NCBI RefSeq assembly: GCF_041886205.1 | Contig: NZ_CP169029.1 | DNA from: Escherichia coli | GTDB taxonomy: Bacteria; Pseudomonadota; Gammaproteobacteria; Enterobacterales; Enterobacteriaceae | Direction: 5' to 3' (one strand) | Length of the DNA stretch: 64,000 nucleotides | In this document: piece after piece, positions 35,884 to 57,170 of the stretch | How positions within the stretch are numbered: the first letter of the stretch is position 1 | Layout of the letters: each line of letters opens with the position of its first letter | Position numbers and translations under genes: made by a program | The notes under the pieces: model-generated | What the model was told of the DNA's origin: nothing | The model's input: only the letters and a program-made list of their open reading frames with translations | Databases searched by the model: none

Positions 35884-36940
35884 GGCTTTGTTGAATAAAT
35901 CGAACTTTTGCTGAGTTGAAGGATCAGATCACGTATCTTCCCGACAACGCAGACCGTTCCGTGGCAAAGCAAAAGTTCAAAATCACCAACTGGCCCACCT
36001 ACAATAAAGCCCTCATCAACCGTGGCTCCATAACTTTCTGGCTGGATGATGAAGCTATTCAGGCCTGGTATGAGTCAGCAACACCTTCTTCACGAGGCAG
36101 ACCTCAGCGCTATTCTGACCTTGCCATCACGACTGTGCTGGTCATTAAACGCGTATTCAGGCTGACCCTGCGCGCTGCGCAGGGCTTTATTGATTCCATT
36201 TTTTCTCTGATGAACGTTCCGCTACGCTGCCCGGATTACAGCTGTGTCAGCAGGCGGGCAAAGTCGGTTAATGTCAGTTTCAAAACGCCCACCCGGGGTG
36301 AAATCGCACACCTGGTAATTGATTCCACCGGGCTGAAGGTCTTCGGTGAAGGCGAGTGGAAAGTCAAAAAGCATGGCCAGGAACGCCGCCGTATCTGGCG
36401 TAAGCTGCATCTCGCCGTTGACAGTAAAACACATGAAATCATCTGCGCTGACCTGTCGCTGAACAACGTTACGGACTCAGAGGCCTTCCCCGGGTTAATC
36501 CGGCAAACCCACCGGAAAATCAGGTCAGCCGCCGCCGATGGCGCTTACGATACCCGGCTATGTCACGATGAACTGCGGCGTAAGAAAATCAGCGCGCTTA
36601 TCCCTCCCCGAAAAGGTGCGGGTTACTGGCCCGGTGAATATGCAGACCGTAACCGTGCAGTGGCTAATCAGCGAATGACCGGGAGTAATGCGCGGTGGAA
36701 ATGGACAACAGATTACAACCGTCGCTCGATAGCGGAAACGGCGATGTACCGGGTAAAACAGCTGTTCGGGGGTTCACTGACGCTGCGTGACTACGATGGT
36801 CAGGTTGCAGAGGCTATGGCCCTGGTACGAGCGCTGAACAAAATGACGAAAGCAGGTATGCCTGAAAGCGTGCGTATTGCCTGAAAACACAACCCGCTAC
36901 GGGGGAGACTTACCCGAAATCTGATTTATTCAACAAAGCC
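35884..36940 (+). mobile_element. IS903-like (IS5-family) insertion sequence, 1,057 bp, 18-bp terminal inverted repeats GGCTTTGTTGAATAAATC, 9-bp target duplication TTTTACAGG (35875-35883 and 36941-36949)
   Basis: IRs and duplication read directly; the left-end sequence matches the IS903 end as I remember it from Tn903-derived vectors. Confidence 0.85.
35961..36884 (+). CDS. IS903-type DDE transposase (about 307 aa from GTG 35961; the open frame starts at TTG 35916)
   Basis: IS4/IS5-family Y-2-R-3-E-6-K signature (YNRRSIAETAMYRVK) and DGAYD motif present; exact start uncertain. Confidence 0.8.
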   Translation: MAKQKFKITNWPTYNKALINRGSITFWLDDEAIQAWYESATPSSRGRPQRYSDLAITTVLVIKRVFRLTLRAAQGFIDSIFSLMNVPLRCPDYSCVSRRAKSVNVSFKTPTRGEIAHLVIDSTGLKVFGEGEWKVKKHGQERRRIWRKLHLAVDSKTHEIICADLSLNNVTDSEAFPGLIRQTHRKIRSAAADGAYDTRLCHDELRRKKISALIPPRKGAGYWPGEYADRNRAVANQRMTGSNARWKWTTDYNRRSIAETAMYRVKQLFGGSLTLRDYDGQVAEAMALVRALNKMTKAGMPESVRIA

Positions 36941-38043
36941 TTTTACAGGCCGTATTCGACAAAGGCACATCAAAATTTCAGCTAACTTATGATGACAGAG
37001 CGCTACAATTTTTTCGTACTTTTGTCCTTGCAACCGAACAATCAACCTATTTCGAGATCCCTGCCGAAGATTCCTGGCTTTTTATCGCTGACGGATCTGA
37101 TAAAGAACTTGATTTCTATACCCTTTCACCAAATATAAACGACCGCTTTGCCTTTCATCCAATTGTCGATCCCTTATCGCGGCGGATAATCGCTTTTGAA
37201 GCCATTGTGCAAAAAAATGAAGATAGCCCATCAGCTATAGCGGTTGGGCAGCGTAAAGACGGGGAAATCTACAAAGCGGATCTCAAAAGTAAGGCGCTTG
37301 CATTCGCGATGGCACACGCACTTGAGCTCGGTGATAAAATGATTTCAATCAATCTATTACCTATGACCCTGGTTAACGAACCTGACGCAGTCTCTTTTTT
37401 ACTTAATGAAATAAAGGCCAATGCTCTGGTGCCTGAACAAATCATCGTTGAATTTACTGAAAGTGAAGTCATATCTCGGTTTGATGAGTTTGCCGAAGCG
37501 ATTAAATCGCTAAAGGCTGCTGGTATCAGTGTAGCAATTGATCATTTTGGCGCAGGTTTTGCTGGTTTGTTACTCCTGTCACGCTTCCAGCCTGACAGAA
37601 TTAAAATCAGTCAGGAATTGATTACCAATGTTCATAAAAGTGGGCCACGGCAGGCAATTATTCAGGCGATCATAAAATGCTGTACATCACTTGAAATTCA
37701 AGTCAGTGCTATGGGCGTGGCAACACCAGAAGAGTGGATGTGGCTTGAATCCGCAGGAATTGAGATGTTTCAGGGGGATCTGTTTGCTAAAGCTAAATTG
37801 AATGGTATCCCTTCCATAGCGTGGCCGGAGAAAAAATAATTTTCAGCACATTCTTTCACATGATTTCAGTAAATCATCGTGAAAATGAATACGTTATGTT
37901 TAAATTTAATCCACATTAAAAATAATGTTTCATCCAAATTAGCTGAAATCTTATTTATACTTTGTACAATTTTAGCGTATATTGTACAAAGTATTATTGG
38001 GTCGTGTACAGGCGACGGAGATTTATGACCGCAAGGAGGAATT

Positions 38044-38775
38044 GTGGCTTATTACAGCATTGGTGATGTTGCTGAACGTTGCGGGATTAATCCTGTCACT
38101 CTCCGGGCCTGGCAACGCCGCTACGGTTTGTTAAAACCACAGCGCAGTGAAGGCGGACACCGACTCTTTGATGAAGAAGACATACAACGTATCGAAGAGA
38201 TCAAGCGTTGGATAAGTAATGGCGTCCCTGTAGGCAAAGTTAAAGCATTACTGGAAACCACCAGCCAGGATACGGAAGATGACTGGAGCCGCCTGCAAGA
38301 AGAGATGATGTCAATTCTTCGTATGGCTAATCCTGCCAAACTACGCGCAAGAATTATTTCACTGGGTCGAGAGTACCCAGTAGATCAATTGATTAATCAT
38401 GTTTACCTTCCTGTTCGCCAGCGTCTCGTGCTTGATCACAACACCTCCCGCATTATGAGCAGTATGTTTGACGGCGCATTAATTGAATATGCAGCAGCCT
38501 CGCTTTTCGAAATGCGCCGTAAGCCCGGTAAAGAAGCCATTCTGATGGCGTGGAATGTTGAAGAGAGAGCACGATTGTGGCTGGAAGCATGGCGTTTATC
38601 ATTGTCAGGATGGCACATTTCTGTTCTTGCTGATCCCATTGAATCGCCGCGCCCGGAACTGTTCCCGACGCAAACATTGATTGTCTGGACAGGCATGGCA
38701 CCAACAAGAAGGCAAAACGAACTTTTACAACATTGGGGTGAGCAAGGTTATAAAGTCATCTTTCATGCCCCCTAA
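38044..38775 (+). CDS. bluR: MerR-family repressor BluR (YcgE), 243 aa, GTG start
   Basis: Translation recognised ([32 protein letters not shown]...). Confidence 0.9.
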
Positions 38776-38994: not shown

Positions 38995-39399
38995 ATGGAT
39001 CAGGTCGTTGTTTTTCAAAAGATGTTTGAGCAAGTGAGAAAAGAGCAAAACTTCTCCTGGTTTTATTCAGAATTAAAACATCACCGTATTGCACATTACA
39101 TTTATTATCTGGCTACGGATAACATCAGAATTATTACTCACGATGACACGGTTTTGTTATTAAGAGGAACCAGAAACCTGTTAAAAGTTAGTACGACCAA
39201 GAACCCTGCTAAAATAAAAGAGGCCGCATTGCTTCATATTTGCGGAAAATCTACATTTCGGGAATACTGCTCAACACTGGCAGGCGCGGGCGTTTTCCGT
39301 TGGGTTACTGATGTTAATCATAACAAACGCAGTTACTACGCCATTGATAATACGCTTTTATATATTGAAGATGTAGAAAATAATAAACCATTAATCTAG
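38995..39399 (+). CDS. ycgX: DUF1398-family protein YcgX, 134 aa
   Basis: Synteny and translation. Confidence 0.8.
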   Translation: MDQVVVFQKMFEQVRKEQNFSWFYSELKHHRIAHYIYYLATDNIRIITHDDTVLLLRGTRNLLKVSTTKNPAKIKEAALLHICGKSTFREYCSTLAGAGVFRWVTDVNHNKRSYYAIDNTLLYIEDVENNKPLI

Positions 39400-40024
39400 C
39401 TAAAGTTGGATGCTTAAGAAATGCTTCATAATTCAGTAAGGCATTAGCATAATGGGAATAAAAGTGCAGAGACCATTCCTATGGTTCTAATACTGCCTTT
39501 TTATTGCCGCCCATAGATGTTCAGTACACCAATACTATAAAATTGATATTGAAATGTACTCCCTTGCTTATTGATACATTATTTTATACGGTTAGTTTGC
39601 TTTTAAAAACAACGGGCGTGCTATACGCCTGTTTCATGGCTTAACCCATATTAATTTTGCTTTATTTTTCATCGCGTTATAAGTTTTTAACCAGCAACGA
39701 GTTATCCTTTACTATAAAGTTCAATAGTTGAGACCTTACCCTCATGTCATGCGTATATTCATTATAATGCTCCTTAGACAAAAAAAGCCAACCATGATGG
39801 TTGGCAAAGTGGCACAAAGTAGCATAAAGGCTATGCTTTAATTACAGAAGGTTCAGTCATTTAAATGTATATCGTTTTATCTAAACAGAACTAAAACGAA
39901 GTGAATGATTTCACTTTTCCACTAAATCTCATTTTGTTTAATCTCTGTTGAGATTCCTTGCTTTAAATTTTGTTTTATAAAACAGTAGCTTTATTTTTTA
40001 ATTGATTTTTAGGTAATATAAAAA

Positions 40025-40279
40025 ATGCAAAATCAAGAAATGAATATCCAAATTAAACTATACGCTTATTTAAATAAATATGACACTCGCCTTACAGAAG
40101 AAAAAATTGCGATTGATAAAGCTATTAGAGAATTACATTTTAGCAGCGAGCATGTTGATAACAAAAAAATAATACTGAAGTTACTTTCATTTTTATCATA
40201 TACAGATGATGTTGTTGAAAAAGACATTATCAGAAATACATTGGAAGTGGTTCTTCTTTTTACTTCCGATGATATTTAA
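40025..40279 (+). CDS. AriR/YmgB-family small protein, 84 aa (paralog of ariR)
   Basis: C-terminal half aligns by eye with AriR (NKKIILKLLSFLSYTDDVVEKDIIRNTLEVVLLFTSDDI versus [39 protein letters not shown]); AT-rich surroundings. Confidence 0.6.
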   Translation: MQNQEMNIQIKLYAYLNKYDTRLTEEKIAIDKAIRELHFSSEHVDNKKIILKLLSFLSYTDDVVEKDIIRNTLEVVLLFTSDDI

Positions 40280-40522
40280 TTGGATTCACTAACTTTATTA
40301 TCAAAATTATTGTCCGAACACTACCTTTCTTACTTATGTTTAATAATAATCACTGCGAATGAGGGGCGCACAACTATATTTTTCTCACACCTGTGATGTA
40401 AAAACACGAGAAAATCCAAATAAAGAACAACATTTGCAATTCCCACCAGATGGATTGCATCACACTTTATTATTCAAAATATTTATCAGCATCATTAAAA
40501 GCCGAAGGATAAGACAAAACAA

Positions 40523-40846
40523 ATGAAGTGGATAGTAATTGACACGGTAATTCAACCTACATGTGGTATATCTTTTTCAGCCATATGGGGTGATATGAAA
40601 ATGATCATCTGGTATCAATCTACTATATTTCTCCCTCCTGGTAGTATATTTAAACCGGTTAAATCTGGTATTATCCTTAAAGATAAAGAATATCCTATTA
40701 CTATTTATAACATCGCACCATTCAACAAGGATTTATGGAGTCTACTCAAAAGCAATCAAGAGTGTCCTCCAGGAGAAAGCAAAATAACAAATAAATGTTT
40801 GCATAATAGTTGCATTATAAAAATATGCCCATATGGGCTCAAGTAA
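40523..40846 (+). CDS. iraM: Anti-adaptor protein IraM (stabilises RpoS under Mg starvation), 107 aa
   Basis: Translation recognised ([23 protein letters not shown]...). Confidence 0.85.
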
Positions 40847-40897
40847 AGGGTTTAATATAAATATGCTCGATATGCTATTAATAATACCTACATAAAT

Positions 40898-40925
40898 AAA
40901 ACAACGGGCGTGTTATACGCCCGTT
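40898..40925. terminator. Hairpin (AACGGGCGT-GTTAT-ACGCCCGTT) between convergent iraM and icd; a near-identical copy lies at 39605-39633
   Basis: Perfect 9-bp stem read directly; A-rich upstream, weak T-tract. Confidence 0.45.
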
Positions 40926-40948
40926 GCAATATTAAACACATGTAGTGA

Positions 40949-42199
40949 TTACATGTTCTTGATGATCGCATCACCAAATTCTGAACATTTCAGCAGTTTA
41001 GCGCCTTCCATCAGACGTTCGAAGTCATAGGTTACGGTCTTGGCGTTGATTGCGCCTTCCATACCTTTAACAATCAGGTCTGCGGCTTCAATCCAGCCCA
41101 TGTGGCGCAGCATCATCTCAGCAGAGAGGATGATAGAGCCAGGGTTTACTTTGTCCTGACCGGCATATTTCGGCGCAGTACCGTGGGTGGCTTCAAACAG
41201 GGCGCATTCGTCACCGATGTTTGCGCCAGGGGCGATACCAATACCACCAACCTGCGCTGCCAGGGCGTCAGAAATGTAGTCACCGTTCAGGTTCATACAG
41301 GCGATAACATCATATTCAGCCGGACGCAGCAGGATCTGTTGCAGGAACGCATCAGCGATCACGTCTTTAATGACGATCTCTTTGCCGGTATTCGGGTTTT
41401 TAACTTTCAGCCACGGGCCGCCGTCGATCAGTTCTCCGCCAAACTCTTCACGCGCCAGCTGGTAGCCCCAGTCTTTAAACGCGCCTTCGGTGAACTTCAT
41501 GATGTTGCCTTTGTGCACCAGGGTCACAGAGTCACGATCGTTAGCAATTGCGTATTCGATCGCTGCACGAACCAGACGTTTGGTGCCTTCTTCCGAACAC
41601 GGCTTAATACCGATACCGCAATGTTCCGGGAAGCGAATTTTCTTCACGCCCATCTCTTCACGCAGGAATTTAATCACTTTCTCGGCGTCGGCAGAGTCAG
41701 CTTTCCATTCGATACCCGCATAAATGTCTTCCGAGTTTTCACGGAAGATAACCATATCGGTCAGTTCAGGGTGTTTAACCGGGCTTGGAGTGCCCTGATA
41801 GTAACGTACCGGACGCAGGCAGATGTAGAGATCCAGTTCCTGACGCAGGGCAACGTTGAGAGAACGAATACCGCCACCAACCGGAGTGGTCAGCGGGCCT
41901 TTAATGGCAACGCGATATTCACGAATCAGATCAAGGGTTTCAGCAGGCAGCCAGACATCCTGACCATAAACCTGTGTGGATTTTTCACCGGTGTAAATTT
42001 CCATCCAGGAGATTTTACGCTCGCCTTTATAGGCTTTCTCGACTGCAGCGTCGACCACTTTCAGCATGGCTGGGGTTACATCTACACCGATTCCATCACC
42101 TTCAATGTAAGGGATAATCGGATTTTCAGGAACGTTGAGTTTGCCGTTTTGCAGGGTGATCTTCTTGCCTTGTGCCGGAACAACTACTTTACTTTCCAT
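40949..42199 (-). CDS. icd: NADP-dependent isocitrate dehydrogenase, 416 aa, full length
   Basis: Translation recognised throughout ([38 protein letters not shown]...). Confidence 0.97.
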
Positions 42200-56013: not shown

Positions 56014-57056
56014 AAAAATGGTCACGCCACCTGCTCGCGGCGGGTGCTCTGGCACTGGGCATGAGCGCCGCTCACGCCGATGACAACAACACGCTGTATT
56101 TCTACAACTGGACCGAGTACGTGCCGCCAGGACTGCTTGAACAGTTCACCAAAGAAACCGGTATTAAGGTTATCTATTCGACTTACGAGTCGAACGAAAC
56201 CATGTACGCCAAGCTGAAAACGTACAAAGACGGTGCGTATGACCTGGTGGTTCCTTCAACCTATTACGTCGATAAAATGCGTAAAGAAGGGATGATCCAG
56301 AAGATCGACAAGTCGAAGTTAACGAACTTCAGCAATCTCGATCCAGACATGCTCAACAAGCCTTTTGACCCGAATAACGACTACTCCATTCCGTATATCT
56401 GGGGTGCGACGGCGATTGGTGTTAACGGTGATGCGGTGGATCCGAAATCTGTCACCAGCTGGGCCGATCTGTGGAAGCCAGAGTACAAAGGCAGCCTGCT
56501 GTTGACCGACGATGCCCGTGAAGTGTTCCAGATGGCGCTGCGTAAGCTGGGCTATTCCGGTAACACCACCGATCCGAAAGAGATTGAAGCTGCATATAAC
56601 GAGCTGAAAAAACTGATGCCAAACGTCGCAGCGTTTAACTCCGATAACCCGGCTAACCCGTACATGGAAGGCGAAGTTAACCTCGGCATGATCTGGAACG
56701 GTTCTGCTTTCGTTGCACGCCAAGCGGGTACGCCTATTGACGTGGTGTGGCCGAAAGAAGGCGGCATATTCTGGATGGACAGCCTGGCGATCCCGGCAAA
56801 TGCCAAAAACAAAGAAGGCGCGCTGAAATTGATCAACTTCCTGCTGCGCCCGGATGTGGCAAAACAGGTTGCTGAAACTATCGGTTATCCAACGCCAAAC
56901 CTTGCGGCGCGTAAGCTGTTAAGCCCGGAAGTGGCGAACGATAAAACGCTCTACCCGGATGCTGAAACCATTAAAAATGGTGAATGGCAGAATGACGTTG
57001 GCGCAGCCAGCAGCATTTATGAAGAGTATTATCAGAAGCTGAAAGCAGGACGTTAA
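56010..57056 (+). CDS. potD: Spermidine/putrescine-binding periplasmic protein PotD, 348 aa
   Basis: Translation recognised; signal peptide. Confidence 0.95.
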   Translation: MKKWSRHLLAAGALALGMSAAHADDNNTLYFYNWTEYVPPGLLEQFTKETGIKVIYSTYESNETMYAKLKTYKDGAYDLVVPSTYYVDKMRKEGMIQKIDKSKLTNFSNLDPDMLNKPFDPNNDYSIPYIWGATAIGVNGDAVDPKSVTSWADLWKPEYKGSLLLTDDAREVFQMALRKLGYSGNTTDPKEIEAAYNELKKLMPNVAAFNSDNPANPYMEGEVNLGMIWNGSAFVARQAGTPIDVVWPKEGGIFWMDSLAIPANAKNKEGALKLINFLLRPDVAKQVAETIGYPTPNLAARKLLSPEVANDKTLYPDAETIKNGEWQNDVGAASSIYEEYYQKLKAGR

Positions 57057-57063
57057 TTCAGCA

Positions 57064-57096
57064 AGCGGGCGGTGGTATTACCGCCCGTTTTTTATT
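57064..57096 (+). terminator. Rho-independent terminator of potABCD (CGGGCGG-loop-CCGCCCG then TTTTTTATTT)
   Basis: Read directly, 8 bp after the potD stop. Confidence 0.65.
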
Positions 57097-57170
57097 TAGC
57101 AAGGATGTGGCTAATGAGTCAGGACAGTAAAGTTTTATCCCGCTCTTTCGTCGGTATTGTGGTCCCCTTG

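Follow-up and report, generated by a model that had tools for sequence, protein, structure and literature searches.

A probable remnant of an element integrated at icd carries iraM between two terminator hairpins in Escherichia coli

The ycgX-icd interval

The window, which is the whole 64-kb stretch of Escherichia coli DNA analysed here, carries along its + strand bluF, bluR (38044-38775), ycgX (38995-39399), a first hairpin (copy 1, 39605-39633), a gene of the YmgB/AriR family (40025-40279), iraM (40523-40846) and a second hairpin (copy 2, 40891-40927, with its 28-mer at 40898-40925); icd follows on the - strand (40949-42199). The ycgX product is a DUF1398 protein and its gene, located outside the segment enclosed by the hairpins, is found also in genomes that lack iraM. 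The RssB anti-adaptor is encoded by iraM and the NADP isocitrate dehydrogenase, of 416 amino acids, by icd, a gene targeted at its 3' end by integrases of the e14 and phage 21 types. Across the 2.1-kb region used as query the window is identical (100%) to E. coli strain 6EVA.

The segment between the two hairpins (39634-40897, + strand), called the module below and read as the probable remnant of an element integrated at icd, has a GC content of 0.25-0.35 compared to about 0.5 in icd and bluR. The preliminary description of a very AT-rich 1.3 kb with iraM and a paralog of ariR is accurate in this respect. Only two genes are annotated there: iraM and the YmgB-family gene of 84 codons, which is intact (Pfam PF10798, E 1.4e-15) and codes a protein 40% identical to the product of ariR, 5 kb away. 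No integrase, excisionase or recognisable phage structural remnant was found inside the module of the window, which is therefore classed as a decayed remnant and not as an element.

At the upstream end of this gene cluster bluF (ycgF, 35484-37839) is split into a BLUF-domain ORF (35484-35894) and an EAL ORF (37207-37839) by an insertion of ~1,057 bp (roughly 35884-36940). The insertion encodes a transposase-like ORF of 322 amino acids (35916-36884) and presumably belongs to the IS5 family, being probably IS903-like.

Sequence and fold of the two hairpins

Copies 1 and 2 are identical at 26 of 28 positions and in direct orientation, as first described, and no others exist in the window: a pattern with Y at both variable positions has 2 exact matches on the + strand of the 64 kb while 0.00 are expected (100 shuffles). 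A third, older copy was found neither upstream of ycgX nor elsewhere in the 64-kb window. The next-best match to the hairpin unit (57053-57097) was rejected as an unrelated terminator.

Both copies fold into GC-rich stem-loops of 9-11 bp. Copy 2 lies 23 nt 3' of the icd stop codon and has an 11-bp stem with 7 GC pairs and a 5-nt loop (40901-40927), followed on the - strand by the tail TTTTATTTAT (40891-40900). The free energy of its - strand fold is -27 kcal/mol (z -5.5) and was equalled by 0 of 200 shuffles. The 23-mer of copy 2 is located 3' of icd also in E. albertii, E. whittamii, Escherichia sp. E1V33 and three Citrobacter species. These features identify copy 2 as the predicted intrinsic terminator of icd, in working order. 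Copy 1 is a stem-loop (39611-39633) followed by GTTTTTAAAA, and its stem has one A.C mismatch on the - strand that corresponds to a G.U pair on the + strand. In both copies a T-run follows the stem on the - strand only and the + strand is devoid of a U-tract, so that the two hairpins are terminator-like on the - strand. Judged from its sequence, copy 1 is probably a decayed duplicate of the icd terminator, a fossil that has probably no function. The two hairpins were said to lie downstream of ycgX and of iraM, which is right for their position but not for a role as terminators of these genes, because both are oriented on the - strand as expected of the icd terminator and its stranded duplicate.

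Like bidirectional intrinsic terminators, copy 2 is flanked by two convergent genes, iraM and icd, and its symmetric stem has an A-run on one side. Unlike such terminators, it is without a proper U-tract on its + strand side, GCAATATTAAAC. Copy 2 may perhaps also terminate iraM, though weakly. A match of the Rfam small RNA family tpke11 to the - strand at 40874-40944 was dismissed (26.4 bits for a gathering score of 43, E 0.008) and most likely results from the terminator shape alone.

No minus-strand gene is seen 5' of copy 1, the sole ORF upstream on that strand being an unannotated one of 46 amino acids (39677-39817), and a stronger - strand terminator (39787-39805) separates copy 1 from the module and this ORF. 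On the - strand the ~60-nt block 39787-39845 comprises this strong terminator, GCCAACCATCATGGTTGGC plus T7, preceded by a second small hairpin, AGCATAAAGGCTATGCT. The block is roughly 90% conserved between two haplotypes of the module while the surrounding sequence is about 75% conserved, and its terminator stem is degenerate in K-12. Rfam gave no match to the block, in which an unannotated small RNA could have its 3' end.

Distribution in E. coli and module haplotypes

The population comparison covered 5,426 complete E. coli genomes, 3,936 of which (72.5%) have iraM of the window type. The full module as found in the window is present in 10 genomes. The majority carry a K-12-type module with a ~430-bp deletion in the ariR paralog, and the K-12 gene annotated as 'ymgK' (14 codons, L002:2304-2348) is the start of the 84-codon AriR-family gene whose remainder was lost in this deletion.

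A single perfect hairpin joins the ymgL flank to the icd 3' end in 1,037 genomes (19.1%), including the B2 strain E2348/69. The interval between ycgX and icd had been proposed for comparison in strains lacking iraM, and exactly one hairpin copy is what these genomes have. Their representative locus reads ycgX-ymgL-one hairpin-icd, with continuous outer flanks and the module absent at a precise junction. Copy 1 of the window is homologous to this single hairpin together with its flank.

The search for further copies, also suggested in the preliminary description, used a 59-mer around copy 2, which was found 1-5 times per genome (median 2) in 5,415 of the 5,426 complete genomes. All copies that were located lie either between ycgX and icd or, where a prophage has integrated at this place, at its icd-proximal end. 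This distribution makes it extremely improbable that the hairpins belong to a dispersed REP-like or common terminator family and surround iraM by coincidence, the contrary case envisaged when the repeats were first described. Such a family would share with them the palindromic shape only, while the two copies in 64 kb where none is expected, the low copy number confined to the icd locus and the single sub-threshold match returned by Rfam are all at odds with it.

A second haplotype of the module, about 25% diverged, occurs in 19 genomes (loci L019-L026) and is represented here by L024. Its gene order is ycgX, copy 1, a paralog of ariR coding for 86 amino acids, iraM, a prophage-type trkG, a gene of 455 codons, an e14-type arm, the hairpin and icd, the arm being thus beside the icd-side hairpin. 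The 86-aa protein is 74% identical to the product of the window gene and was found in 19 of 5,426 genomes, and iraM has in this haplotype its own, different + strand terminator. The L024 island holds in addition an inverted IS remnant related to the insertion in bluF (77-81% identical). The existence of two haplotypes ~25% apart suggests that the module is old, and the single-hairpin genomes may therefore be secondary deletions that occurred via the repeats.

Extent of the duplicated unit

The repeat was first described as ~28 bp long, which holds for the hairpin while the true repeat is longer. The overlap of the two copies amounts to 47 bp in K-12-type genomes (query positions 156-202) and comprises the hairpin, the A-run and ~18 nt of the spacer between icd and its terminator. 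This spacer (40928-40948, - strand) separates the icd stop codon from copy 2 and is part of the duplicated unit. In the window its remnant adjoins copy 1 (39634-39652, - strand), where the alignment continues beyond the hairpin; it is decayed in this strain and better kept in K-12-type genomes. In the L024-type haplotype the match of copy 1 reaches about 37 nt past the hairpin, through the icd stop codon and the last four codons of the gene: TAACATATTCTTGAT aligns to icd TTACATATTCTTGAT with a score reached by 1 of 1000 shuffles (p about 0.001). An IS3-family transposase fragment follows directly after this stub, which retains 15 nt of icd. The repeat thus matches the 3' end of the target gene, namely terminator and spacer and, in L024, also the stop and last four codons of icd. 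The L024 sequence indicates that the duplicated unit is the icd 3' end with its terminator, which was later truncated.

Beside copy 1 of the window no significant icd-like sequence was detected past the spacer (flank-only local alignment, equalled by 456 of 500 shuffles), and the displaced 163-bp icd 3' pseudogene is absent there, L024 having the 15-nt stub only. A decayed icd 3' pseudogene at this position of the window was for this reason dropped as a candidate, since only the L024 haplotype retains a significant stub.

An explanation that requires no insertion is that the two hairpins arose by local duplication or convergence and are kept as functional terminators for the + strand genes, copy 1 for ycgX-ymgL and copy 2 for iraM. 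Both are found 3' of genes of this strand and both fold on it, with -17 and -20 kcal/mol. Three copy-1 haplotypes (window 39611-39633; L024:5369-5391; L042:19154-19176) feature one stem transition each, all different, and every one of them makes a G.U pair on the + strand and A.C on the - strand. Three wobble-preserving transitions out of three have, however, a chance probability of 0.125, which is at most a hint of + strand use, and copy 1 of K-12 is mismatched on both strands. Neither stem is followed by a T-run on the + strand, the run being on the - strand, iraM of L024 has a terminator of its own, and the icd spacer and last codons included in the repeated unit would be superfluous for a terminator of ycgX. 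Duplicated terminators in the service of the + strand genes are accordingly an improbable account of the two copies.

The flank on the other side of copy 1, which is part of the ymgL region, holds a putative decayed attachment-site arm of the e14 type, made of TTGATA-type repeats (39563-39595, no strand assigned) and recognised by local alignment immediately beyond the hairpin. The flanks of K-12-type and iraM-less alleles align to e14 arms, in register with the hairpin, with z values of 3.4-6.9 (0-2 of 400 shuffles equal). The window allele gave a weaker signal (z 1.6-2.7; 8-33 of 400 shuffles equal), and the control flank, beside copy 2 of the window, has no TTTTGATAA-type arm (z about 0). 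Either copy 1 would have been brought by an earlier e14-like element, of which ycgX would be leftover cargo, or ancestors of e14 would have taken up the host flank. Both origins of the arm-like flank imply that copy 1 once directly adjoined icd. The ycgX product is 30% identical to a prophage DUF1398 protein and belongs to a phage-associated family, and its gene is possibly cargo of this older layer.

Prophages and nested terminator copies at icd

Missing from the preliminary description is that the icd 3' end is already known as a hot spot of phage attachment and that the phages attaching there carry the same hairpin. Element e14 separates 163 bp of icd and provides their replacement (PMC6379469), and the lambdoid phage NC-SV integrates at the phage 21 site within icd (PMC12803456). 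Strains EDL933 and Iso00225 have a lambdoid prophage with xis-int and GTTTTGGGGAA repeats directly beside the hairpin. Next to the integrase gene these prophages carry the spacer and a 23-nt hairpin identical to that of the window, and their similarity to the window starts at 40896, 2 nt from the left end of copy 2 (40898). In Iso00225 the far end of the prophage, 49 kb away, consists of ycgX, a ymgL-like gene, the original hairpin and an icd 3' pseudogene. This layout indicates that such phages integrate inside icd and bring a replacement 3' end with spacer and terminator.

At megablast sensitivity, only the part from copy 2 onward of a ycgX-to-icd query matches the O157:H7 strain EDL933 (L004). 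The icd terminator of this strain is adjoined by a partly degraded lambdoid prophage (xis, int, P, ren, emrE, ybcK), and ycgX and iraM are absent or too diverged for detection at the megablast level.

In elements of the e14 type the hairpin is diverged, AACGGGAGCGTTACGCTCCCGTT, and is accompanied by an arm made up of TTTTGATAA repeats. Since phages that integrate in icd have their own icd 3' end, spacer and hairpin, K-12 with e14 displays three nested copies: the one borne by e14 adjoins icd, the original follows the icd pseudogene next to iraM, and the decayed copy 1 is found next to ymgL. The same stack is found in WCHEC035125, with a degraded prophage whose xis and integrase genes are next to icd. 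The prophage-borne terminator of WCHEC035125 (L042:33483-33505) has its central loop inverted, GTATAACAC for GTGTTATAC, and an unchanged stem.

Divergence between strains is 3-4 times higher in the ~300 nt at the 3' end of icd than in the other ~940 nt of the gene; relative to C600, the window has 19 differences in the last 300 nt (40949-41250) and 17 in the other 940 nt. This divergence fits what is expected from repeated replacement by phage-borne copies.

It has been stated that iraM is 'found on the e14 prophage' (PMC4045071). The gene is outside e14 and is present in e14-free strains, and it is to be regarded as a separate layer.

The repeat that encloses this layer might also be the duplicated att core of a small element that recombined within the terminator and stop codon region of icd through a core some 47-65 bp long and without any larger icd 3' pseudogene at any time. 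Islands that target tRNA genes recombine by a short att core at the target gene. The present repeat spans only 47-65 bp and ends four codons into icd, its outer edge is sharp and the 163-bp stub has left no trace. The sharp outer edge is, however, also the end of the segment carried by the icd phages, the IS3 fragment that adjoins the L024 stub suggests truncation, and the prophages inspected at icd carry the displaced icd 3' pseudogene at their far end. The literature places the crossover inside icd for e14, 163 bp from the 3' end, and for the phage 21 site (PMC6379469, PMC12803456). An att core of this kind is for these reasons rather unlikely. The hairpin is probably the outer end of a duplicated icd 3' segment and not the crossover site itself, a role that the pseudogene at the far prophage end of Iso00225 renders less likely. 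The choice originally offered between duplicated terminators and recombination scars of an insertion is then essentially one event seen from two sides, in which the source of the repeat is icd and the crossover probably occurred elsewhere than in the hairpin.

Phage relatives of the module genes

Homologues of IraM (50-75% identity) were found in Escherichia only. Those whose context was inspected are all located in lambdoid prophages (46 phage records and three chromosomal prophage types), where their slot in Stx2 and other lambdoid prophages is between Q/stx2 (or lpxR, ORF6N) and the nanS-p esterase gene. The DNA similarity between the chromosomal and the Stx-phage iraM is limited to the ORF and 43 bp upstream, and the hairpins are outside of it. 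The cargo of the module has a foreign composition (GC 0.25-0.35) and, in the case of IraM, phage-borne homologues.

The prophage genes of the IraM family (L008:5001-5324, L009, L027-L035) occupy a fixed slot on the opposite strand, from stx2AB (or lpxR, ORF6N) to nanS-p. All have a precomputed Pfam match to PmrD (PF11183), and no PmrD (PF11183) match to the IraM protein of the window was obtained by hmmscan at E<=0.01.

The ariR paralog has no relative in phage records or viral contigs. Its resemblance to the neighbouring chromosomal ariR suggests that part of the module may not be phage-derived. The non-coding DNA of the module gave no match among phage records.

Proposed origin of the iraM module

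The most probable history, to which we assign a probability of roughly 0.7, is that an element integrated at icd and then decayed, so that iraM and the ariR paralog now lie between two icd terminators, one stranded and one working. Direct observations on which it builds are the single-hairpin state of iraM-less genomes, the homology of copy 1 to that hairpin, the presence of the hairpin in living prophages at icd and the three nested copies of K-12. Both hairpins would be copies of the icd 3' flank, composed of the last codons, a short spacer and the Rho-independent terminator. Temperate elements that integrate in icd would carry a replacement 3' end with this terminator, so that each integration leaves the element-borne copy at icd and pushes the previous one outward. 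An element with iraM, a gene of the phage 'moron' type, is proposed to have integrated in this manner. Its integrase, its body and most of the displaced icd 3' stub would have been deleted later, in one haplotype next to an IS3 fragment. About 1.3 kb would remain between the fossil terminator and the working one; the former would be decaying and probably functionless, the latter terminating icd and perhaps, weakly, iraM.

This history has a close parallel in e14 and icdC of K-12. There, too, icd is the target gene and receives from the element a new 3' end complete with spacer and terminator, and the displaced original persists at the far end of e14 as a direct repeat whose hairpin is immediately beside iraM. 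The difference is that e14 retains an integrase, an excisionase, a body of about 15 kb and an icd pseudogene of 163-168 bp, while the iraM layer is without these and has the 47-65-bp repeat only. The lambdoid prophages at the icd site of EDL933 and Iso00225 differ in being full-length or recently degraded and in their GTTTTGGGGAA-type arms, whereas copy 2 of the window has no arm. Duplications at the 3' end of tRNA or protein genes, such as the 47-bp argU repeat of DLP12, share the direct repeat of the target's 3' part, the AT-rich foreign DNA bracketed by it and the empty site with one copy (PMC6379469). In the iraM layer, by contrast, the repeat is mostly terminator and spacer of a protein gene, and two small genes are all that is left of the element.

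Several findings speak against the proposed history: the module has no integrase or recognisable phage structural remnant, copy 1 of the window has no icd stub and copy 2 no arm, and neither the ariR paralog nor the non-coding DNA matches phage records.

No informative outgroup for the polarity of gain and loss was found among Citrobacter, E. albertii, E. whittamii and Escherichia sp. E1V33. In Citrobacter bluF-bluR is in a different neighbourhood, without ycgX or icd. In the other three the hairpin is accompanied by integrase or attachment-arm sequence, and ycgX is not found within reach. A tblastn search of the outgroup loci with two icd-site integrases gave nothing beyond known integrases, and E. 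fergusonii, E. marmotae and E. ruysiae were not among the species returned by the exact-match scan for the 23-mer. Homologous recombination between the 47-65-bp direct repeats could itself lead to loss of the module.

Significance for E. coli

The mechanism of insertion proposed here is already known from textbooks and amounts to an ordinary prophage scar; what is new is its application to iraM. The product of this gene is a regulator with a stabilising effect on the stress sigma factor RpoS, and iraM would gain a concrete origin in an old layer of its own at the icd hot spot. Bounded by a fossil terminator, such a layer would explain why about one in five E. coli genomes lacks iraM and has a clean junction with a single hairpin. 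A consequence for annotation is that 'ymgK' of K-12 is what remains of an AriR-family gene found complete in the window strain.

Stranded terminator copies could mark and count past integrations at icd. The stacked terminators might, in a quite unlikely but broader scenario, form a readable record of serial phage integrations, with a possible ycgX layer, the iraM layer and e14 or lambdoid prophages, in which the repeats may act as a cassette for repeated loss and regain of iraM that retunes RpoS stability, or in which copy 1 may have been co-opted as the + strand 3' hairpin of ycgX-ymgL.
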